Of a DNA stretch of 64,000 nt, positions 4,140-43,924 are shown piece by piece. The notes beneath the pieces were generated by a model. It was not told the origin of the DNA. It was given only the letters and a program-made list of their open reading frames with translations, and ran no database searches. Each line of letters opens with the position of its first letter. The stretch's first letter is position 1. The DNA is taken from positions 36,890,001 through 36,954,000 of the forward strand of contig OZ024740.1 of assembly GCA_964016885.1 (NCBI GenBank). The letters run 5' to 3'. A program made the position numbers and the translations under genes. The DNA is from Eledone cirrhosa (lineage: Eukaryota).

Positions 4140-4500
4140 CCAGTTACCTCGGTTAGGCGAGCCACCAGTGAAGATAGGAATCTTGCAGTCAGTAGCCCTA
4201 TTCCCGCAAACGTCTCGAATGTCATTGGCTGGAAAATGTAGCTGGCCGAAAGATCTTGGTATTTCAGGATTTTATTCTGTTCGGCTGCAGATGAAGTAGC
4301 TCTCGTCCTTACTGTTACATCCAGGATCAGGGAAGAAGCGATGAATGAAATGACTAGCTGTGGAATCCCAGGTAAGGCACTTTTCTCTTTACCAGGGACA
4401 CGGGGTAGAACCGCCAGGTCTTCTTCCATCAATTCTGGACAACCCAGACGGTTCCAAAACGGAGGGGATATTTGCCCGGGCCAAAGCTCTTAAGAAGTGG
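4140..4500 (-). pseudogene. CRE-like non-LTR retrotransposon fragment, REL endonuclease region
   Basis: RALARANIPSVLEPSGLSRIDGRRPGG..PW and AAEQNKILKYQDLSASYIFQPMTFETFAG; a short second piece is on + at ~36145-36200. Confidence 0.7.
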
Positions 4501-4542
4501 TAATAGGACAGTGTGTGTACCATATATGTGTGTGTGTGTGTG

Positions 4543-4599
<57 letters not shown>

Positions 4600-4727
4600 A
4601 TAAAGAATGTCCATAGAATCATTTGATAATATATATACACCATTTCCTCTCCCAATTAGCATAATCAACCACATAAAAAATCAATTAGACCAGGCTATAA
4701 GATTAAAAGGCACCTATGAAGAAATAT

Positions 4728-4790
<63 letters not shown>

Positions 4791-4838
4791 TATGTATGTA
4801 TACGTACATACATATATATATACAGACGTACAGTAGCA

Positions 4839-4896
<58 letters not shown>

Positions 4897-5046
4897 CAGG
4901 TACACATACATATATGTACGTATCAGTTTAGCGGACGTTTATTATAACGCCCGCTTTGTCCGTTTGTAAACAAACTGACAGCCTGAATTTATGACGTACG
5001 GTGTTAAGGCAACCACGTCACCTTTTTGTTCAACACTGACACAGGA

Positions 5047-5089
5047 ACGATGGACTAGTTTCAAGCTTCTTAGCTATCATCAGCACGGT
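5047..5089 (-). ncRNA. Minimal type I hammerhead ribozyme (family A)
   Basis: ACCGTG-CTGATGA-TAGCT-AAGA-AGCTT-GAAA-CTAG-TC-CATCGT; GUC site; one mismatch in stem I. Confidence 0.85.
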
Positions 5090-5325
5090 ATACCCTTCTG
5101 CCAGATGGTTGAACGTTCGAAAGTATATACTTTCCTTATGAAAATTAACGGCTGAGCAGCCTAATTTGCATATCGAGTGAGTTCAGTCGGCCAGGCGCAC
5201 CGAAAACGATAAGTTGTAATAAAATGAAAACGAAATTTCATTTCTCGCTCTTAGTACGGCACTTACTTAAATGTAAGTATGTATGTATACGTACATACAT
5301 ATATGTATACAGACGTACAGTAGCA

Positions 5326-5395
<70 letters not shown>

Positions 5396-5545
5396 CAGGT
5401 ACACATACATATATGTACGTATCAGTTTAGCGGACGTTTATTATAACGCCCACTTTTTCCGTTTGTAAACAAACTGACAGCCTGAATTTATGCCGTACGG
5501 TGTTAAGGCAACCACGTCACCTTTTTGTTCAACACTGACAAAGGA

Positions 5546-5588
5546 ACGATGTACTAGTTTCAAGCTTCTTAGCTATCATCAGCACCGT
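5546..5588 (-). ncRNA. Minimal type I hammerhead ribozyme (family A)
   Basis: ACGGTG-CTGATGA-TAGCT-AAGA-AGCTT-GAAA-CTAG-TA-CATCGT; palindromic stem III ACTAGT; GUA site. Confidence 0.9.
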
Positions 5589-5905
5589 ATACCCTTCTGC
5601 CAGATGGTTGAACGTTCGAAAGTATATACTTTCCTTATGAAAATTAACGGCTGAGCAGCCTAATTTGCATATCGAGTGAGTTCAGTGGGCCAGGCGCACC
5701 GAAAACGATAAGTTGTAATAAAATGAAAGTAAGTGCCGTACTAAGAGTGAGGAGTGAAATTTCGTTTTCATTTTATTACAACTTATCGTTTTCGGTGCGG
5801 CTGGCCGACTGAACTCACTCGATATGCAAATTAGGCTGCTCAGCCGTTAATTTTCATAAGGAAAGTATATACTTTCGAACGTTCAACCATCTGGCAGAAG
5901 GGTAT

Positions 5906-5948
5906 ACGGTGCTGATGATAGCTAAGAAGCTTGAAACTAGTACATCGT
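5906..5948 (+). ncRNA. Minimal type I hammerhead ribozyme (family A, inverted unit)
   Basis: Same motif as 5546-5588, on the + strand. Confidence 0.9.
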
Positions 5949-6102
5949 TCCTGTGTCAGTGTTGAACAAAAAGGAGACGTGGTTGCCTTAACACCGTACG
6001 GCATAAATTCAGGCTGTCAGTTTGTTTACAAACGGACAAAGCGGGCGTTATAATAAACGTCCGCTAAACTGATACGTACATATATGTATGTGTACCTGTA
6101 TG

Positions 6103-6133
<31 letters not shown>

Positions 6134-6256
6134 GAATATAGACATAGAATATTCGAAAATATTCTGTATGCTTATAATAAACATTTTGAAGACCTAATCG
6201 CTATAGAATAGAATACGTCACGTATTACAATTAGATTCTCGATAAAAGCAAGGGAA

Positions 6257-6299
6257 GTAATCTACGCGTTTCATTCTCGTTAGAAATCATCAGGACTAC
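6257..6299 (-). ncRNA. Minimal type I hammerhead ribozyme (family B, unit 1)
   Basis: GTAGTC-CTGATGA-TTTCT-AACG-AGAAT-GAAA-CGCG-TA-GATTAC; stem I GUAGUC/GAUUAC, palindromic stem III ACGCGT, GUA site. Confidence 0.9.
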
Positions 6300-6566
6300 A
6301 TATCCAGTGCTTTTATCGAGAATGACACAGCTAGAGACTTATAGAATACTTAGCTGTGTACAGGAACTGGTTTGAAAGAGCGGTTGCCGGTCCGGCAGAA
6401 ATTAGAAATTGGAATAAATGCTCTGAAATAGCGATATATATGTGAATATAGACATAGAATATTCGAAAATATTCTGTATGCTTATAATAAACATTTTGAA
6501 GACCTAATCGCTATAGAATAGAATACGTCACGTATTACAATTAGATTCTCGATAAAAGCAAGGGAA

Positions 6567-6609
6567 GTAATCTACGCGTTTCATTCTCGTTAGAAATCAT
6601 CAGGACTAC
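6567..6609 (-). ncRNA. Minimal type I hammerhead ribozyme (family B, unit 2)
   Basis: Identical to 6257-6299. Confidence 0.9.
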
Positions 6610-6876
6610 ATATCCAGTGCTTTTATCGAGAATGACACAGCTAGAGACTTATAGAATACTTAGCTGTGTACAGGAACTGGTTTGAAAGAGCGGTTGCCGG
6701 TCCGGCAGAAATTAGAAATTGGAATAAATGCTCTGAAATAGCGATATATATGTGAATATAGACATAGAATATTCGAAAATATTCTGTATGCTTATAATAA
6801 ACATTTTGAAGACCTAATCGCTATAGAATAGAATACGTCACGTATTACAATTAGATTCTCGATAAAAGCAAGGGAA

Positions 6877-6919
6877 GTAATCTACGCGTTTCATTCTCGT
6901 TAGAAATCATCAGGACTAC
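6877..6919 (-). ncRNA. Minimal type I hammerhead ribozyme (family B, unit 3)
   Basis: Identical to 6257-6299. Confidence 0.9.
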
Positions 6920-7110
6920 ATATCCAGTGCTTTTATCGAGAATGACACAGCTAGAGACTTATAGAATACTTAGCTGTGTACAGGAACTGGTTTGAAAGAG
7001 CGGTTGCCGGTCCGGCAGAAATTAGAAATTGGAATAAATGCTCTGAAATAGCGATATATATGTGAATATAAGTCTCTAGCTGTGTCATTCTCGATAAAAG
7101 CACTGGATAT

Positions 7111-7153
7111 GTAGTCCTGATGATTTCTAACGAGAATGAAACGCGTAGATTAC
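7111..7153 (+). ncRNA. Minimal type I hammerhead ribozyme (family B, inverted unit)
   Basis: GTAGTCCTGATGATTTCTAACGAGAATGAAACGCGTAGATTAC read directly on +. Confidence 0.9.
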
Positions 7154-7310
7154 TTCCCTTGCTTTTATCGAGAATCTAATTGTAATACGTGACGTATTCT
7201 ATTCTATAGCGATTAGGTCTTCAAAATGTTTATTATAAGCATACAGAATATTTTCGAATATTCTATGTCTATATTCACATATATATCGCTATTTCAGAGC
7301 ATTTATTCCA

Positions 7311-7350
<40 letters not shown>

Positions 7351-7360
<10 letters not shown>

Positions 7361-7397
7361 ACGTACATACATATATGTATACAGACGTACAGTAGCA

Positions 7398-7479
<82 letters not shown>

Positions 7480-7589
7480 TGCTACTGTACGTCTGTATAC
7501 ATATATGTATGTACGTATACATACATACTAACATTTAAGTAAGTGCCGTACTAAGAGTGAGAAATGAAATTTCGTTTTCATTTTATTAC

Positions 7590-7591
<2 letters not shown>
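7351..7591. repeat. Remainder of family A repeat, palindromic around a (TA)n tract
   Basis: 7351-7400 matches the start of the family A unit; 7476-7591 continues the inverted unit that broke off at ~6110. Confidence 0.8.
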
Positions 7592-7631
<40 letters not shown>

Positions 7632-7634
<3 letters not shown>

Positions 7635-9869
7635 AATACCAAAAAAACGGCTCAAGCGAAAATATGAGTGGATCTTGTCGAAACGCCACAACAGGAACAT
7701 CGTCACTAACGAACAGACGGACCAGAACCACGTGGAAAACAACACCTTAACAACCGCCACCGCCGCAACCACCAACATCGAGCCATACCTCAACGAATCG
7801 ACGCACCTGGTCACCGACCTAACCGGCACTCTCACGAGCGACGAGCTGAAACTCCTACACCTCGGACCTAAGTTCATCGTCACACAACGTCTCGACGACA
7901 GACTCAAACTCAACATCGAGGCCAACTTTTGTCGAGCCGCTTACCAACTTAAATGGGTGACCGCTATCAACAGCGCCACAGATAATAACAGCGCCGACAC
8001 AACCCACCCCAAGTTCCCCACTTACCACCCCGACAACCCACTCCACCCCACACCCACCACGAACTCGATCGACACTAAACTTATCAGGCTAAAACACTCC
8101 ATCTCGGATATACTTCACAAACACACACACACACGCACAACACATAACCTCACCAAATCTCAACTCACCACTCTCTCCAACCTAAAATCAAGAACCTCAT
8201 CTATCTCCCCTCCGACAAGGGAAAAGAATTCTGCGTCATCAGCAGAGAGGCCTACAACACCCTGGCCCTCCAACACCTTGACGATGACAACCTCTACTCC
8301 AAGGTCACGGGAATCACTCCCACGCAGATAGAAGAACACATCAACTCCGCCTGGACCAACATCTGCGACCGGCGGAAGCTCCTGAAGAAGCTGAGATACA
8401 ACCTTCTCACGAGGAACAGCAGACTACCCGCCTTCTATCACCTCGTGAAAACACACAAAGAGGGACCCGACCTGAAAACCAGGCCCATCGTATCGAGCGT
8501 GGAGGGACCACTCTACAAAATTTCATGGCTCCACGCCAGAATACTCAAACCCATCTTAGACACCTTGCCGGGACACGTTAACAGCTCCGAGGAGGTGTTG
8601 AAGCGCCTGCATCAAATGGATCCCGACACCAGAAGGAATAACAGATATGCCTTCAGCCTTGATGTAGTCGCTCTCTACACCTCGGTCCCGGCACTCCCGG
8701 CCGTCAATATACTAATGGAACGCGTCCAATCCACCGACCTACACTGCTTCGGGCTCACCACCACTGACATCCACCAACTCCTATCCATCGTCGTCGAAAA
8801 CACCTACTTCGGATTCCTTGACTAAATATACCAACAAACCTCGGGATTGCCCATGGGATCAAGCCTATCAGGTGTGCTAGCGATCTGCTACATGGACAAC
8901 CTCGAACGCAAGGCAGTCAACGCCTGCCACCCCAACCCCGTAGCCTTTTTCTCAAGATACGTGGACGATATCCTCATCCTCACATCTTCCCAAGACACGG
9001 GGAACAGAATCTATGAGACGTTCAACAACACGGACGAGAACATTGACTTCAGTGTTGAACACCGCAACGAAGACGGGTCACTTGCCCTCCTCGACTTCCG
9101 AATCAACATCACGGAACAAGGAGGGATCCACTGCAACTTCTACAGAAAGGCAGCCTGCAGGGACCTATTCGTTCACTACAAGTCCGCTCTCCCTAACAGT
9201 GCCAAAAGAGGATACATCACGAACGATATCGCGCGAATCAAAAACAGATGCAGTGATCCCGCGAGTAGTGTCACTCATACCAAGCGATTCCTCGAGGTGC
9301 TGGAGACGAACGGGTACCCTACCTCGATCACAGACAGAATAGGAGACACCAGACGCAAGAGACAGAGAAGCACCCAAGGCAAGTGCTTCCTTAAAATGCC
9401 ACACCTGGGCGAGAAAACCACCAACGCTATCCGCAAGGCTATACGGAGGGAGGGCCTCGACATCCACCTGGCCCACTCGGGCCCCTCCCTGCGAAGATGC
9501 CTCTCCAGGAAACCCGAAAAATCTACTGACGCATGCTCCCTCAGAGACTGCCCGATACGCCATGCTAACTGTTGCCTACGCACATACGTCGTGTATAAGA
9601 TAGAATGTGACAGGTGCAACCAATACTACATAGGTAGCACAATTCGACCTTTGCACATCTGGATCAACGAACACACTAAAACCAGGGCCTCGTCTTTCCG
9701 GAAACACATAGACAAATGCGGAAACAAAGACGGAAGGCCCATTGTCACAATTCTAGCGACTGAAAGAAACGTCGGCACGTTACGTATCAAGGAAGCGCTT
9801 TTTATCAAACGACTGCAACCGCAAATAAACAACCGATCAGAGAGAAGCGAAATGAAATGGCTGGTTTAA
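7632..9869 (+). pseudogene. PLE1 reverse transcriptase / GIY-YIG endonuclease ORF (frameshift ~8195, stop 8823-8825)
   Basis: KTHK..RPIVS, SLDVVALYTSVP, PMGSSLS, RYVDDI, FLKMPHLG, a Cys-rich linker, then VVYKIECDRCNQYYIGST..EH..KEALFI..PQIN. Confidence 0.92.
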
Positions 9870-10260
9870 GTTAACAAGCGATGCAACAATACACAACACA
9901 CGCACACACACACGCAAACGAGACAACTACACACACACACGCACACACACACAGTAGCATTCCACCATACGAACATACTACACTGCTAATACAGATGAAC
10001 AAGGCAACAACACACACACACACTCAAGCGAGACAACAACACACGCACACACACAGTAACATTTAACAAACAGGCAGAGAATGGACTGACAGCTAGCGCC
10101 ATCCCACTCCCTCATTCGGCCGCTGACCTCTGTACGACCGACCCCATTTCACGCGCACGCGCGCTCTGCCGAATGCCTCAGATATTCAAAACAACAAACA
10201 GCGAAAGACGCGTTCCGGACTTGTCCGACAGACAACCTTTTCCCCCACCCCGGAAAAAAA

Positions 10261-10296
10261 CCCCAGTTGATGGATGTGAATCCGAAATATATAGGG
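10261..10296 (+). ncRNA. Degenerate hammerhead ribozyme in the PLE1 3' region
   Basis: CCC-CAGTTGA-TGGAT-GTGA-ATCC-GAAA-TATA-TA-GGG; stems intact, two substitutions in the CUGANGA box. Confidence 0.55.
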
Positions 10297-10616
10297 ACTA
10301 TTAAATCTCTCCCAAGGTAACTCTCTCTTGTGTTGTTATTTTTATTTTTATCCTTTATACTCTTCCCTTCATTCTACACATCTCCCACATCTTATACACA
10401 CCACGCATCTCAACGTACACCCACTTACATCTCTCTCTCCACCACCGGACCTTGTTACCCGGAGATTTACCCATTTGCATTGTCGAGGCTTCCAAACGAC
10501 TTAAAGATATTTACTTATATATATATATAAGGAAGTTATTCCGGGTTGAATCGGAGGTAACCACAGTAAGTAAGGTACTCAATACATAGCAGAGTATAAA
10601 AGTTTTAATATAGATG

Positions 10617-10667
10617 AGATTCTACAGGACTAGAACTGTTTCATTCTTTAGAAATCATCAGGAATCT
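10617..10667 (-). ncRNA. Type I hammerhead ribozyme (family C)
   Basis: AGATTC-CTGATGA-TTTCTAAAGAAT-GAAA-CAG-TTCTAGTC-CTG-TA-GAATCT; identical to 15575-15625. Confidence 0.85.
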
Positions 10668-10801
10668 GGCTTTCCAAAAATGTATGTGTGTATGTGTGTG
10701 TATGTATGTGTATGTGTGTGTATGTGTATATATGTGTATGTATGTATGTATATGTATATGTATATAATATAAGATCAAAAGATGGTTAAAAGTGTTCCAA
10801 G

Positions 10802-12962: not shown

Positions 12963-14135
12963 TAATACTGAAATAAGGTAGAAAGATGGGTATATTTGTA
13001 AAAGATATATAATCCTTTGAGAAAAAGGATTTTCAACTAGTAAGGTATTGAGATGTATACTTTATGGAATGTTCTATGGAATTTATGCAAGCAGAGAGAA
13101 AATAAATCTATTTATTATAGAATTGAAATTAGATATAATGGTAAATTTCTCGGCTAGGCAGAGATTACATGTTCTGGATAGGGAAGAATTCAAGTAAGGA
13201 AAGGCGGAACAAACCTTCCTCCAAGAGATGTTATAGTTAATATTTTTGTCTTTCAAGGACCATATGAGTTCCGAGAGTGCCGTGTTAGTTCTTTTACGAT
13301 GGTATTTAAAAGACGAATTGTGATTATAAAATTTAGCCTTGAAGGAAGTGGAAGTGGAACCGAAATAGGTAAAAGAATTGGTATCAGTTATAACCTTACA
13401 TTCATAGACTAAGTTTTTATCAAGACAATGGTTATTAAGAGGACATTTAGTTTTAATAGGGCAATTACAATTACGATTAGAGAAATTAACAGAGTTATTA
13501 ACAGGTGACCTAGTGTTATTTATAGAAGGAATTGGATTGGAGAAGTTATTTACGATAGGAACAATAGTTTCCTGATTTAGATTGGTATTATGAACATTCA
13601 ACGAAGTTACGTTTGACGTCGTATTTAAATTTACAGAATCTAGCCTAGAGTTAACAATGACGTCGGGTGTACTACTGCTATTATTATGACGCTCAGTGAT
13701 GGAAGGATGTGATTTATTATTTAATATTTTATTGTTGTGTTTAGAGATAATGTTAGAGATATTGGAGGTGGTGGAATAAGAAAGTTTTATTGTATGTTTG
13801 TTAAAGATTTTACTATAGATATGTGAGGGAGGGAAGCATTTATCTAAGGCCCTAAAGAATAGTTTAGGAATATTATTATTAATAGATATAGAAAAAGGAG
13901 CATTATACCAGATTATATTTTTGTATCTAGGTCTTTTATTTAAGTTATTGGAATGTCCATAATTAATTATTTTACTGTAAGACCTTCTAGGATTGGTTTC
14001 TTTACTGTATTTAATTTTATCAGGATAAGTGGCTTTAGAAAGCGCATTATTATAGTAATTGGCGTTAGCATCGAAGATATCTTTATTAGAGGATAGGTTT
14101 GAGATTTTTTTTTCAATATTACTGACTATAGCATG

Positions 14136-15139: not shown

Positions 15140-15574
15140 ATGTCTGTTGACAGCTGGAATATAGCTTCAGAGAAATATGACAATAATGATAGACACCCAA
15201 TATTTTGAACTGGTTTATAGAATTCTCTTGGCCTTTGTCACTCTAAGTAGAGCTTTAAAGAATTAGCTTTTAAAGAATTTGTCTTTTCTTTAAATCCATC
15301 AACCATGACCGACCCCCAACCATCTTATAGACACCTGAAATATAGGCATTGTTAGCTTAAGAGAAACTTAAAAATAAGGAGTGGCACCCCATTCTGAACC
15401 TGTTTATAGAATCCTTTCTGCCTTTGTCACTCTAAATATAAACTATAGCCTTAAAGAATTAGCTTTTAATGAATTCCCTTTTCTTTCAACCAATGACCTC
15501 CACCCATCCCACTCCCCACCCTCTCCTACCACCTGAAAAGATATAAATACCACACCATTTACTTTTGGAAAGCC

Positions 15575-15625
15575 AGATTCCTGATGATTTCTAAAGAATG
15601 AAACAGTTCTAGTCCTGTAGAATCT
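15575..15625 (+). ncRNA. Type I hammerhead ribozyme (family C)
   Basis: AGATTCCTGATGATTTCTAAAGAATGAAACAGTTCTAGTCCTGTAGAATCT; ends a ~500-bp non-coding piece (15140-15640) with an internal ~190-bp duplication. Confidence 0.85.
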
Positions 15626-15744
15626 CATCTATATTAAAAATATATATATATATGAGTGTGTGTGTCACCGTTTTTAAGTAAGAGACATATATATGTGTGT
15701 ATCCCCTTCCTTCCTTTTACACAAACACACATTTTGTGATGGAC

Positions 15745-36046: not shown

Positions 36047-36656
36047 ATATTTATATAGATATATGACACACACATATGTATATATATGACACACCACACA
36101 CATACAGACACGAGTCTTTAATTCAAGAACGCCGACAAACTCATGCGCGGCATACACACACTGTCCCATTACCACTTAAGAGCTTTGGCCCGGGCAAACA
36201 TTTATGCTGATTGGGAGAATAAATACTGTATATATTTTATCTAATGATTCTATGAACTTACTTTTTATATATACATATATAAGTATGTACACGTACATAC
36301 ATATATGTATACAGACGTACAGTAGTATGTATATATATATACATACAAGCACACATATATATATGTACGTATGGATTCACCGAACATTTATTATAATGCT
36401 CGGTGTGTTTGTAAACAAATATCCCGTTTACTTTTTACTTTTTACTTTTTACTTTTTACTTTTATATATATAAACAGCACGGACACTCTATCTCAAAATT
36501 ATTTTTGAAAAGCATTTAGAAATGCGCAACCGGTAAAAACTTAAAAACTTAAAACCACAACTGAATACTAACCCATACAATCACTAATACTCTTTTATTC
36601 CTAATTAAACCATTTTTCAGCTGTGAACAATTTGTCAGCATTTTCTATTCCGTTTA

Positions 36657-36736
<80 letters not shown>

Positions 36737-36753
36737 TAAAAAGTAAAAAGTAA

Positions 36754-36849
36754 ACTCCGACGGCAGAGCTCAAGCCGTTTCGATGGCCATTTCTGGACTA
36801 AATTAGAATTTTTAGCCTGGTAAATAAATAGCCGAACTTATCAAGGGGT
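36754..36849 (-). ncRNA. Hammerhead ribozyme, U3-A8 core variant (PLE3 pLTR copy 1, some stem mismatches)
   Basis: ACCCC-TTGATAA-GTT-CGGCTATTT..AAATGGCCA-TC-GAAA-CGGC-TTGAGCTCT-GCCG-TC-GGAGT. Confidence 0.65.
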
Positions 36850-39800
36850 ACTTCCTTATATGGGAAGATTGTAGTTGTCAAGAGGATTGGTCAAAATTTG
36901 TTGTAAACACAAGTAAGTCTATCATGGCATTTGGTGGGATGTAGGGGTGGCTGAACTTGCCTGTATAACAATGATGGGGTGAGTGGAGCCGGTCAAACGT
37001 TGAAAGTGATATCTATACAGCAGATTCTAAGGATAGTGTATGAAAAGTCGAAGAATTGTTCTGGAGAAAATGGAGGAGGGAGGGTATAGAATAGGTAAAT
37101 CAGATGAGAGTAGGAGACAATAAAACATAATAGAAAGAAATATAAAAAAATATTTTAAAAAAAAATAGATAGTGAGAAATGAATAAAAAACATCAAAAGT
37201 AGTAGAGTCTAGAAACAGCTGCTATAAATAGTAGGTGTTGCTTGTATGGCCAAAGCTATAGAAAAGGTTGATAAGTCGAGAACGGAAAATACTAAAATTG
37301 TAGAAGTGGGTAATGAAAAAATATAATGCAAACTTTTCAGGGGTCTAACACAGCTGCTATAAATAGTTAGTAAAGCGTATACCGCCAATGCTAACTTACA
37401 ATTACAGGCTAATGAGTTGAGAAAAGAAAATACTAAATAAGAAATTTAGAAATTGTAGAATTGGAGTAGTAACAAAAATGAAGTAGTAACAAAAATGTTA
37501 CAAAATTACATGGGTCTAACACATCTACTATAAATAGTTAGTGAAGCGTATTCGGCCAATTCTATCTTAAAATTACAAGGGTACTGAGGCTACAGAGGCC
37601 CGATAGGCTGCATCGGGGTAGGCGGAAGGGGAAAAACAGACGAGGAAGAAGATCGGGGTGGAAGGAAGTGATAGGATGAGACAGGGGGAAGAAGATAACA
37701 TAGAGGAAAAGAAAAGAGGTACATCTGCCTATGTAAGCTGGGGTTTCCCCTAACTTATTCGGCAAGTGGGAGGTATCAGCCCTTGTCTACCCACCCGGGA
37801 CGTTATGGGGTTTGAGGGCGAGGTAAGTCCTACGCAATCTGTGTTTGCATGCGGTTACCTTTTCGTCTTTCTTGTTTAGGAGTTGATCTTTCGAAAACAG
37901 CATTTGTAATGTTTCCTCCGAGCAAAAGTTACATGGACGGCGTCCTCCCGTGTAAGAATTAGCTCTGGACAGTAAGCTCCAAGTGAGATTGTAGGTTATA
38001 TTATTATCTTGGAGGTCCCAGATGTGGCCCGAAAGTGTAGTGGCATGTCGCCGGACCGGGTTTCGGAAAGTAAGTCCGTGTTGGTATAGCCGGATCTTAA
38101 AGTCACAAGCGTTTAATCCTATATAAGCTTTGTTGGAGGTGTCCGTCCTCACGTTGCACTGGTAGATTACGTTACGTTCTCGGCATCTGTTGTCGAGGGG
38201 GCACGTAGATCTATCAAGGCAGTTACACCTCCTGGTCGGCTCTCCACTGATGTCTAGGTTGTTTCTTCCATAGGGGTTGAGTTTTTTGTTGTTTGAGGAG
38301 GCGATGTTTTGTGCGAAGTTAGGTGTGGTGCCGTAGGAGAGTTTGATGGTGTTTTTGTTGATTATGTTGTGGTAGCAGTGTTGTAGTGGGAAGTGTTTTT
38401 CGAGGAGCCTAAAAAGTTTTTCCCGATAGGTGTTGTCACCTCGGCATTGTGGGGAGGATTGAACCACGTTACGTTGCGTGAGCGGTGGTGTCGCCTGCTG
38501 GTTCTGCTGAGGGAAGCTGGATAAAAGGATATTTCTTCCCGGAAGCCACTCCGCTTGAGGGCCTGGTTGTAATGAGGCGCATGTTCGTTGAATATCTGCT
38601 CATTAGCGGACAAACGAGATATGCGGAGGGAGATGTTTTTAACCAGGTTTTTTGGTGTGTTTCTAGGATGGTTAGAGCGGCGGTGGATGTAGTGCAGGTT
38701 GTCGTTTGGTTTCCTGTATGGGTAGTACAGATCATTTTCGAGGTTAAGGGTAACGTCCAGGAAATTGACTCGGGTTAGGGACGTTTGTAGGGTGATGTTA
38801 AATCCCCAGTCCCGGAAGAAGTTGATAAGTTGTTTACAGACCCGGTCTGTACTACTGGGGTTGTACCCTTTGAGGGTGAGGAGCCCATCATCTCGGTACA
38901 ATCCACCTCCGAATGCAGGAAACATTTCGGTGAGTTTAAATAGTAGGAATAATCCTATAAGATCTGTGACCTCGGCCGAATCCGTCGCGCCCATACTGAC
39001 GTCGAAGGGGGAGTTGGGAGCACTCTTTATCCACTTAGAGCTGTCGAAAAGTAAGACTGTCTTCCTGGCGTGGAGAATGATATTTCTTTCCTGGTCAGTG
39101 ATGGGTGCGAGTGTTTAGGCAAAGTCCAAGGCGGTCGTAAGGAGCGGTAAGGTAATAGATGCATAGTAACTCTCTATGTCAAACTGGATGAATTTTGTGT
39201 CTCGTTTGTCCTCCATATTCCTGAACCATGAGATTACTTCCTGGGTGCTGACCCATAGGCTAAGTCTCGCGTTTTGCTTAACTTTTGGTATAACGCGGTC
39301 TATGATCTTTTTACTGATTCTCCCTATGTCCGACTTCGTTGGGTTTATAAGCCTGATGGATGGTTTGCGGTCGAAGTCGGATTTGTTGTCCTTCAGAGTG
39401 AAGTAGGGAGTCCGTGGGTCTAAGGGTTCAGTGTGGTCGGCGACCCCGAGGCTGGAGGTAATTTGTTGTCCAGCTCAATTTATGTCGTTTGACCGGCTCC
39501 ACTCACTCCCTCATTGTTCTACAGGCAAGTTCAGCCACCCCTACCTCCCACCATTTTAAGATAGAATTGGCCGAATACGCTTTACTAACTATTTATAGCA
39601 GATGTGTTAGACCCATGTAATTTTGTATCATTTTTGTTACTACTCCAATTCTACAATTTCTAAATTTCTTATTTAGCATTTTCTTTTCTCAACTCATTAA
39701 CCTGTAATTGTAAGTTAGCATTGGCGGTATACGCTTTACTAACTATTTATAGCAGCTGTGTTAGACCCCTGAAAAGTTTGCATTATATTTTTTCACTACC

Positions 39801-40865
39801 CACTTCTACAATTTTAGTATTACAAATGCTGTTCTCGAAGGATCAACTCCTAAACAAGAAAGACGAACTGGTAACCGCATGCAAACACAGATTGCGTAGG
39901 ACTTACCTCGTCCTCAAACCCCATAACGACCCGGGTGAGTAGACAAGGGCTGATACCTCCCACTTGCTGAATAAGTTAGGGGAAACCCCAGCTTACATAG
40001 GTAGATGTACCTCTTTTCTTTTCCTCTATGTTGTCTTCTTCCCCCTGTCTCATCCTATCACTTCCTTCCACCCCAATCTTCTTCCTCGTCTGTTTTTCCC
40101 CTTCCGCCTACCCCGATGCAGCCTATCGGGCCTCTGTAGCCTCAGTACCCTTGTAATTTTAGGATAGAATTGGCCGAATACGCTTTACTAACTATTTATA
40201 GTAGATGTGTTAGACCCATGTAATTTTGTAACATTTTTGTTACTACTTCATTTTTGTTACTACTCCAATTCTACAATTTCTAAATTTCTTATTTAGTATT
40301 TTCTTTTCTCAACTCATTAGCCTGTAATTGTAAGTTAGCATTGGCGGTATACGCTTTACTAACTATTTATAGCAGCTGTGTTAGACCCCTGAAAAGTTTG
40401 CATTATATTTTTTCACTACCCACTTCTACAATTTTAGTATTTTCCATTCTCGGCTTATCAACCTTTTCTATAGCAACACCTACTAGTTATAGCAGCTGTT
40501 TCTAGACTCTACTATTTTTGTTTTTTTATTCATTTCTCACTATCTGTTTTATATATTTTTAAATATTTTTTTTATATTTCTTTCTATTATGTTTTTTGTC
40601 TCCTACTCTCATCTGATTTACCTATTCTATACCCTCCCTCCTCCATTTTTACTCCAGAACAATTCTTCGACTTTTCATACACTATCCTTAGAATCTGTTG
40701 TATGGATATCACTTTCAACGTTTGACCGGCTCCACTCACTCCATCATTGTTATACAGGCAAGTTCAGCCACCCCTACATCCCACCAAATGACATGATAGA
40801 CTTACTTGTGTTTACAAATTTTGACCAATCCTCTTGACAACTACAATCTTCCCATATAAGGAAGT

Positions 40866-40960
40866 ACCCCTTGATAAGTCCGGCTATTTATTTACCAGGT
40901 TAAAATTCTAATTTAGTCCAGAAATAGCCGTCGAAACGGCTTGAGCTCTGCCGTCGGGGT
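40866..40960 (+). ncRNA. Hammerhead ribozyme, U3-A8 core variant (PLE3 pLTR copy 2)
   Basis: ACCCC-TTGATAA-GTC-CGGCTATTT-[32 nt]-AAATAGCCG-TC-GAAA-CGGC-TTGAGCTCT-GCCG-TC-GGGGT; stems I and III perfect; GUC site. Confidence 0.78.
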
Positions 40961-41116
40961 TTACTTTTTACTTTTTACTTTTACCCACTCTACTATCCTA
41001 AGTATTGAGTACTCTGGTGCGTTATGGTCCATCTGGTTCCTTACCACATCTCCTTCGTTATATATATATATTGTTAAATACGCCGAGTCCGTCAACTTCT
41101 TATCATATATATATAT

Positions 41117-42435: not shown

Positions 42436-42487
<52 letters not shown>

Positions 42488-42595
42488 AGGAATTCCAACT
42501 TTGTCTGATTTACTCGTTTTATTTACAATCCTTTAAAATATATAATGGTATTATAATGAAATAGTATGATAGAATATTAAATTCTAAGTGTTAAT

Positions 42596-42634
42596 TGAAC
42601 AAGTACTTTCATGCTTTCGCAATCTTCAGGTTCA
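42596..42634 (-). ncRNA. Minimal hammerhead ribozyme (PLE4 inverted pLTR)
   Basis: Reverse complement of 43663-43701. Confidence 0.85.
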
Positions 42635-43662
42635 TAATATTTGCTGACAGTCAAGTTTGCAATTTTCAACTGTAATAAGATGGGTAAATTTCCTACCTTT
42701 TATACATTTTATACAGGGAAAAGTGGCTCCAGAATGCTAAGCCCTGCAAACTGTATTTCGACCAATCAGTGTGTAGTTTCATCAATTACTAAAGCTGATT
42801 AGTTTAAGCGTCACGGCTGGTTGAGCATGTCTAACGACCAATAATTAATCATATCCAAAGCATCAATTGCTTTGCTATTTTTAGAAATGATGAAAATAGT
42901 ATTTTCTATTAATCATCACCATCAACATCACTTTTATTATTATTATTATTGTTGTTGTTGTTGTTGTTGTTGTTAGTGGTCGTAGTCATAGCAGAAATCT
43001 AATTTACTGCATTAAATGCCCGAATTGTGAAGAACTATATGTCGGTCAAACTGGAAATGCACTATCGGAACGTGCACGGGTACACCGTCAACAAATCAGA
43101 GACCCAAATGTCCGTCAGATACCCCTAAGTAACCATCTAGCAACATGTGGTCAGGGAATATTTATAATATTCCCATTCTACAAATTACACAGCCCAAGTG
43201 AAATCAAGAGAAAAATCAAAGAAAAGAATTTTATTGATAAATTCAAACCCAAGCTAAATGAACAATAATAACGCTTAGGGGTATTACTTCTACTACCACT
43301 ATGACTACGACCACTAACAACAACAACAACAACAATAACAACAACAATAATAATAATAATAAAAGTGATGTTGATGGTGATGATTAATAGAAAATGCTAT
43401 TTTCATCATTTCTAAAAATAGCAAAACAATTGATGCTTTGGATATGATTAATTATTGGTCGTTAGACATGCTCAACCAGCCGTGACGCTTAAACCAATCA
43501 GCTTTAGTAATTCAGTGAAACTACATACTGATTGGTCGAAATACAGTTTGCAGGGCTTAGCATTCTGGTGCCACTTTTCCCTGTATAAAATGTATAAAAG
43601 GTAGGAAATTTACCCATCTTATTACAGTTGAAAATTGCAAACTTGACTGTCACCATATATTA

Positions 43663-43701
43663 TGAACCTGAAGATTGCGAAAGCATGAAAGTACTTGTTC
43701 A
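43663..43701 (+). ncRNA. Minimal hammerhead ribozyme (PLE4 pLTR)
   Basis: TGAAC-CTGAAGA-TTGC-GAAA-GCAT-GAAA-GTAC-TT-GTTCA; palindromic stem III AGTACT; CUU site. Confidence 0.85.
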
Positions 43702-43924
43702 ATTAACACTTAGAATTTAATATTCTATCATAATATTTCATTATAATACCATTATAAATTTTAAAGGATTGTAAATAAAACGAGTAAATCAGACAAAGTT
43801 GGAATTCCTCTTATTAATATAATCTTCTATACACAATCATACACACCCGTGTATATTTACCTATCTATCTATCTATATATATATATATATATAGTTGAAG
43901 TGGTGGTGGTGATGGTGGTGGCGA

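Follow-up and report, generated by a model that had tools for sequence, protein, structure and literature searches.

A probable non-LTR retrozyme with an internal (TA)n tract among PLE remnants of Eledone cirrhosa

Non-LTR retrozymes have been described as tandem units devoid of ORFs which carry type I hammerhead ribozymes, are expressed as circles and are probably moved by PLEs (PMC7229834; bioRxiv 10.64898/2026.07.22.740005). In the same two reports the animal retrozymes are regarded as non-autonomous PLE derivatives. The size of the units is 150–450 bp in the first report and 51–972 bp in the survey presented in the second. In vitro, one of nine predicted retrozyme dimers cleaved (bioRxiv 10.64898/2026.07.22.740005). 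PLEs target (TA)n and leave tandem or inverted copies and tails (PMC8557442), and according to PMC11167929 the insertion of a PLE did not need ribozyme cleavage. The literature examined leaves the mode of mobilisation of non-LTR retrozymes unsettled. No retrozyme with an internal target microsatellite appeared among literature titles and abstract openings, a scope outside which lie most subscription papers, the supplements of the retrozyme papers, Repbase and Dfam. The repeat annotation of Octopus vulgaris lists recently active PLEs, and the word “ribozyme” has no occurrence in its main text (PMC13282606).

We describe here a hammerhead repeat, family A, observed in a 64-kb stretch of Eledone cirrhosa DNA (the whole stretch analysed, called the window below). 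It shares with the pLTRs of C-terminal-EN PLEs (Penelope/Poseidon, Neptune, Nematis, Hydra) a hammerhead near the 3′ end, tandem and inverted copies, insertion into (TA)n and a tail-like extension (PMC8557442, PMC4209133), but no in-register ORF is present upstream or downstream of it. Chlamys elements such as MRC1 form a non-autonomous, multicopy, head-to-tail and microsatellite-targeting PLE family like family A, but most of them are without hammerheads and have (CA)n or (C)n as target; their 3′ end is similar to that of the autonomous partner (PMC8557442), whereas no such partner of family A was found in the window. In the EN-minus PLEs Athena and Coprina, reverse-complement telomeric repeats stand beside the hammerhead, a precedent for a PLE-type RNA carrying the target repeat. 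That repeat aids attachment to telomere overhangs (PMC8557442), whereas family A has a microsatellite of interstitial location as its target, and most of its 3′ ends do not fall within the pure repeat.

The window consists of repeat-rich, animal-type DNA with many microsatellites and several RT fragments. Sequence comparison within it showed that family A is composed of a 487-bp unit, a shortened second unit and an inverted arm. The tandem part (4787–5728) had a period of 499 with 1.9 copies and 95% matches, and the inverted copy (5727–6146) was 96.9% identical over 420 nt. The array of two direct units and one inverted unit of about 499 bp, announced in a preliminary description of this DNA, was borne out in its arrangement, with the correction that unit 1 measures 487 bp and that unit 2 is shortened; the value of 499 corresponds to the distance between predicted cuts, longer TA tract included. 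From left to right, a (TA)n with one interruption (4724–4788) is the presumed target site. Unit 1 (4787–5273, minus strand) is complete, with an RNA-sense 3′ end CTTA (4790–4787) running into this TA, and contains an internal (TA)n of 51 nt (4842–4892). Unit 2 (5274–5728, minus strand) is shortened by 44 bp at the inversion junction, and its internal (TA)n of 63 nt (5329–5391) lies within a 146-nt domain of alternating purines and pyrimidines (5277–5422). The inverted arm (5727–6106, plus strand) joins unit 2 via a 2-nt overlap and gives way to a (TA)n (6107–6133) at the place where the internal tract would be, after which comes another repeat, family B, and not the family A flank. Beyond family B, a 48-nt piece of family A (7353–7400, minus strand) lies between the TA tracts 7314–7352 and 7401–7476 and is an exact inverted copy of the sequence from 7477 onward (0 of 48 mismatches). 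The segment 7477–7593 (plus strand), which lies beyond the coordinates of the preliminary description, is family A sequence continuing the inverted arm past the TA, and it ends at a second CTTA, with the C changed to A, into the TA tract 7594–7632.

The bodies of the three copies differed pairwise at 7, 5 and 6 of 337 sites, a total of 18 per 1011 (1.8%), which would mean either an old insertion or a heterogeneous array, rather than one circle, as the template. The GC content of the unit was 34.5%. The longest stop-to-stop frame reached 62 codons for the ribozyme strand and 93 codons for its complement, and 13 PLE proteins compared by tblastn with positions 4788–6106 gave no match at E ≤ 1, in keeping with the earlier remark that the units have no ORF.

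A diverged copy was present 31 kb from the main array, in different surroundings (36266–36419; 74.7% identity over 162 columns, E 6e-23). Its part outside the microsatellite aligned better than 20,000 of 20,000 shuffles and was the best among 4076 window tiles, which confirmed the piece previously placed at about 36272–36420. The fragment itself (36280–36419, minus strand) has the same CTTA 3′ end as unit 1, both TA flanks and the two structures described below, a 24-bp stem and a 10-bp hairpin; it stops before the hammerhead, and no such motif was found in 36266–36419. Both family A loci adjoin pieces of a further repeat, E (4468–4724 and 36153–36262; 79–90% identity), the halves of which are permuted around a TA tract between the two loci. 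Possibly repeat E, too, is an element that carries TA, and family A landed in it. The diverged fragment is also joined, 5′ end to 5′ end, with a (TTTACTT)n (36427–36463), a motif for which all eight window matches are located there or at the termini of the PLE remnant F (36733–36754, 40960–40981). This may be a chimeric two-armed insertion, pointing to the RT of F as the partner, or merely an adjacent insertion.

A structure-constrained scan of the whole window, in which the core and paired stems were required, detected 11 hammerhead motifs: three in family A, four in family B, two in family C and two in element D. The same scan detected none in 30 shuffled windows. One CUGAUGA...GAAA hammerhead per copy was found in all three long copies of family A, the direct units having theirs on the minus strand and the inverted arm on the plus strand, so that the one ribozyme per unit noticed at the outset was recovered. 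Hammerhead 1 with its extended stem I (5028–5114, core starting at 5083) has a predicted cut after 5053 (GUC) and one mismatch in stem I. For hammerhead 2 (5527–5613, core starting at 5582), detected by the motif scan, the cut is predicted after 5552 (GUA), 499 nt from the first, and for hammerhead 3 (5881–5967, core starting at 5912), detected by fold and motif scan, after 5942 (GUA). Helix I contains 6 bp in hammerheads 2 and 3 and, with the mismatch, three consecutive pairs in hammerhead 1. Helix II is made of a U-U mismatch followed by 4 bp, the mismatch at its base being also present in axolotl HHR_Amex2, and helix III of a single pair capped by a palindromic CUAG loop, a single-pair helix with palindromic tetraloop as in axolotl HHR_Amex1 (PMC7229834). 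This layout of helix III has been described as needing a dimer (PMC4209133), and the CUAG loops of two copies were predicted to form a 6-bp duplex (−6.8 kcal/mol). Stem I continues into the GTTCAAC/GTTGAAC hairpin that had been recognised beforehand, with a folding energy of −34.2 kcal/mol (z −3.1; 2 of 200 shuffles as good). The minimal motif typical of PLEs has a G10.1-C11.1 pair, an extra nucleotide after A9 and a long helix II; the pair and the long helix II were absent here, and the family A hammerhead is nearer to the canonical metazoan type (PMC4209133). Rfam gave no match to family A at the gathering score, and in E-value mode the best hammerhead model reached 18.1 bits (E 1.2) where the cut-off is 52, so that it is through the motif scan and the fold that the hammerhead is identified. 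The top matches in E-value mode were miRNA models on TA repeats, far under their cut-offs, and were dismissed as compositional. A search for the exact motif in prokaryotic genomes gave no match and was uninformative.

The metazoan non-LTR retrozymes (Cervera and de la Pena 2020, PMC7229834; Li et al., bioRxiv 10.64898/2026.07.22.740005) are, like family A, ORF-free tandem repeats with one type I hammerhead each, a GC content below 50% and a strongly self-paired predicted circle. In family A the head-to-tail units are of a few hundred bp (period 499, 1.9 copies), slightly above the 150–450 bp of PMC7229834 and within the 51–972 bp of the bioRxiv survey. Type I hammerheads, under the Rfam threshold, occur in two consecutive units (5083 and 5582, minus strand), one of them with a stem I mismatch; there is no ORF, the GC is low, the predicted circle is self-paired, and no LTR-like layout was evident in the sequence comparisons. 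Family A differs from the described retrozymes by its internal (TA)n of 12–63 nt in a predicted 24-bp stem, the word “microsatellite” having no occurrence in PMC7229834. A further difference is that the inverted arms and 3′ ends of family A are mappable at this locus. We consider it likely that family A is a non-LTR retrozyme copied into (TA)n by the RT-endonuclease of a PLE. The element is real and its class is known, but its microsatellite domain, apparently conserved, is unusual. The broken stem I of hammerhead 1 counts against this assignment, and so do the published cleavage of one predicted dimer in nine, the PLE insertion that did not need cleavage, the 1.8% divergence of the copies and a unit size above that of PMC7229834. 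The original proposal of a non-autonomous retrozyme or pLTR-derived element agreed with the ORF-free head-to-tail units, each with one hammerhead, with the inverted arms pointing out into TA, and with the lack of similarity to the non-coding parts of the three window PLEs compared.

The best-surviving alternative, which takes family A for the multimeric pLTR belonging to some autonomous PLE located elsewhere in the genome, both arms being truncated before the ORF, appears improbable. PLE insertions are heavily 5′-truncated and inverted (PMC8557442), tandem hammerheads exist in axolotl PLEs (PMC7229834), and direct and inverted 5′-truncated arms in (TA)n are present in family A. Element D (42476–43821) is such a truncated PLE, in which a GIY-YIG remnant lies between inverted arms of about 520 bp with a similar hammerhead. 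However, the 940 nt of the left arm of family A are purely head-to-tail units with no coding remnant, and no ORF follows the hammerhead. A family A unit has a further unit upstream of it; the arm of element D, by contrast, has the GIY-YIG remnant there. Family A was found neither adjoining the RT-GIY-YIG ORF of the window PLEs G, D and F nor recurring at the other end of such an ORF, and it has no similarity to their non-coding parts (121–278 of 300 shuffles as good). On this sequence evidence, family A is not the pLTR of any PLE compared in the window (G, D, F).

The nearest of these PLEs, G (7633–10515, plus strand), is 5′-truncated and encodes an RT with a GIY-YIG at the C terminus in a coding region broken by one frameshift and one stop; its 3′ UTR ends with CTTA and then TA, and it is not homologous to family A. 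The only organism-named match to its protein was from Octopus bimaculoides (54% identity). A role of family A as the 5′ pLTR of G, the orientation of which is that of the inverted arm, was rejected, as neither the 3′ UTR nor the 5′ region of G resembles family A (equalled by 145 and 243 of 300 shuffles, respectively). At about 10265–10300 in the 3′ UTR of G, a degenerate hammerhead-like motif, substituted at two core positions and with a helix II of the typical minimal kind, was seen by eye only and was missed by the scan. The hammerhead of element D has a U at the cleavage position in both arms. PLE F (36731–40983) has a CxCX5C linker, described for PLEs of the Hydra clade (PMC8557442), and long inverted arms with 154-bp internal repeats. 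It is related to another PLE remnant at 13107–13859 (36–55% protein identity), and the scan detected no hammerhead in either. Several PLE remnants and the two family A loci thus reside together in 64 kb. Of 20 comparisons of family A, made against 10 non-coding stretches nearby in either orientation, just one, with family C on the same strand, gave a nominally low value (5 of 300 shuffles), a signal that we put down to the common hammerhead core, the alignment itself being unchecked. The two pieces of family C (10530–10680, 15563–15639) are 100% identical over 77 nt and both adjoin TA; with the stable helix III predicted for it, their hammerhead could act as a monomer.

The TA tract is bordered by both family A flanks at three junctions, over 51 nt in unit 1, 63 nt in unit 2 and 12 nt in the diverged copy (36330–36341). 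Because the diverged copy, at a separate site, retains both flanks, the sequence comparison indicates that the tract is part of the element, and the early idea that the repeat carries its own TA was upheld by these three intact junctions. That every unit has such a tract held for the two direct units, with both flanks, but not for the inverted arm, which stops at the TA 6107–6133. The flanks of the tract alternate between purine and pyrimidine at 75 of 83 steps, as compared to 177 of 349 in the body. On the ribozyme strand they are predicted to form a 24-bp RNA stem enclosing the TA (4800–4923, minus strand; arms 4923–4900 and 4823–4800), which recurs at 5422–5399 and 5310–5287. At all three intact junctions the longest uninterrupted flank helix was of 24 bp on the ribozyme strand, with three or four G-U pairs, versus 13 bp on the other strand. 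The energy of the flank duplex was reached by 34, 12 and 5 per 2000 shuffles preserving purines and pyrimidines at the three junctions. Just upstream (RNA sense) of the microsatellite domain, folds and pair counts showed a 10-bp hairpin (4930–4955, minus strand), 100% paired in three distinct sequences, with both partners altered in three of its ten pairs (17 of 500 shuffles). The counts for junctions and covariation come from three to four related sequences at two loci, in registers chosen after inspection, and as predicted structures the stem and the hairpin both point to a structure kept on the ribozyme strand. The loop motif of the hairpin, TTATAATRAAY, a pattern chosen after inspection and with 0.47 matches expected, had all eight of its window matches in family A (4937, 5436, 6048, 36386) or family B (6172, 6482, 6792, 7228), on the ribozyme strand in the former and on the opposite strand in the latter.

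The circular monomer was predicted at −167.7 kcal/mol for the ribozyme strand versus −133.3 kcal/mol for the other strand. The predicted circle was 70% paired, with a z of −10.8 with the microsatellite domain and −3.7 without it (40 shuffles each). From the cut site to the start of the microsatellite domain the distance is 130 nt, which resembles the distances from cut to 3′ end in B (129 and 166 nt), C (93 nt) and D (115–116 nt), as would be expected if the domain had been added later. We infer from these sequence distances that family A once ended near the start of the domain and that a target site or an inverted junction was captured afterwards; the TA tract is probably this old target site or junction.

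A different view of the tract, that it is a host target and not cargo and that a 436-bp TA-to-TA monomer inserted repeatedly into one host microsatellite, is quite unlikely. It would account for the inverted arm ending exactly at TA, for the TA that separates all neighbouring elements and for the variation of tract lengths. Yet the diverged copy at another site has its 12-nt TA bordered by the same two flanks, three ends (4788, 36281 and 7353) fall about 50 nt past the tract, and the flanks pair across it, fully on the ribozyme strand only. Still less credible is an origin mainly by DNA-level duplication, fold-back at palindromic TA or misassembly of one hammerhead-bearing fragment, since, for all the perfect 48-nt inverted duplicate at 7353–7400, the nearly identical copies of family B and the difficulty of assembling TA-rich inverted repeats (PMC8557442), the family A copies differ at 5–7 of 337 sites per pair and so are not one sequence read twice, and the 3′ end recurs, with compensatory pairs, in an independent diverged copy.

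Read on the ribozyme strand, family A meets flanking TA-rich DNA at five places. The ends at 4788 and 36281 correspond to a single CTTA site, situated some 50 nt beyond the pure TA tract. The end at 7353 is four bases short of this first CTTA site, that at 7593 corresponds to the second CTTA site with one substitution, and that at 6107 to the internal TA tract itself. The unit holds three distinct CTTA sites. CTTA ends were also observed in both arms of PLE D, in PLE G and in one of the two family C pieces, but not in B or F, and this 3′ end is common to family A and the window PLEs D and G. As three of the four other 3′ ends are at CTTA outside the tract, with the inverted arm breaking at TA, these sequences suggest that the TA tract was mostly copied as cargo and was not the priming site. 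The internal TA as the usual priming site was rejected, as it fits at most one of the five ends. An anole PLE initiates internally, at a position that shares no homology with the target, and both strands are extended (PMC11167929); by analogy, the CTTA ends beyond the tract agree with such internal initiation.

We propose the following model for family A as a PLE-mobilised retrozyme. The tandem array would be transcribed on the ribozyme strand, and the hammerheads, with their palindromic CUAG loop, would cut as dimers, giving a 499-nt monomer or circle. A PLE protein would then nick a genomic (TA)n, and reverse transcription would start inside the RNA, mostly at a CUUA some 50 nt beyond the pure TA. 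As two predicted cut sites lie within the 940-nt left arm, either a circle or a multimer left uncut would have been the template, and copying from both strands of the target would give inverted arms pointing outwards. The TA tract, observed at lengths of 12 to 63 nt, travels with the unit, at the tip of the predicted 24-bp stem, for which full pairing is predicted on the ribozyme strand only.

Family B (6134–7313, minus strand) is a 310-bp hammerhead repeat with three direct copies and an inverted arm, and is a candidate for a nested insertion in the TA of family A. After the TA 6107–6133, the order is family B, TA, the 48-nt family A piece, TA and family A again at 7477–7593, which resumes in the orientation and register that continue the inverted arm. 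The copies of family B had 0 of 1521 mismatches, versus 18 of 1011 in family A, and were 99.5–99.8% identical in the longer BLAST alignments; with copies so much closer to one another, family B is probably the younger of the two. Family B has a short TA run of its own inside the repeat, and its left arm ends there (6124–7317). We slightly favour the reading in which family B was later inserted in the internal tract of the inverted arm, the 48-nt piece being a local fold-back. Alternatively, the inverted arm was primed in TA and 7353–7593 is a second, small insertion of family A. A haplotype link between the inverted arm and 7477–7593 was uninformative, as it consisted of one common variant, 95C>T, maybe private to unit 1. 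Among the 20 pure TA tracts of at least 20 nt in the window, totalling 909 bp, two (114 bp) are plainly internal to family A, and five (256 bp) if family B was inserted in the internal tract; family A as the main source of the TA microsatellite of the window is not shown by these counts. The suggestion that the repeat seeds landing sites therefore has one candidate case, family B, open to the alternative reading above, while family A supplies only 2–5 of the 20 long TA tracts. It is a tentative idea, in our estimation, that a retrozyme captured its own target, with (UA)n at the tip of a selected stem, that each insertion brings a new TA able to expand, and that PLE-driven elements such as family B land there, a feedback that would give the nests of PLEs and retrozymes spaced by TA in this window.

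This locus provides mappable evidence for the PLE model of retrozyme mobilisation, in the form of outward inverted arms, an insertion longer than the unit and a recurrent internal CUUA start, and it names RNA elements that can be mutated in the existing in vitro PLE assay. If the nested reading is false, family A is one more retrozyme family in a TA hotspot. If it is true genome-wide, a ribozyme repeat makes target sites for the elements on which it depends.
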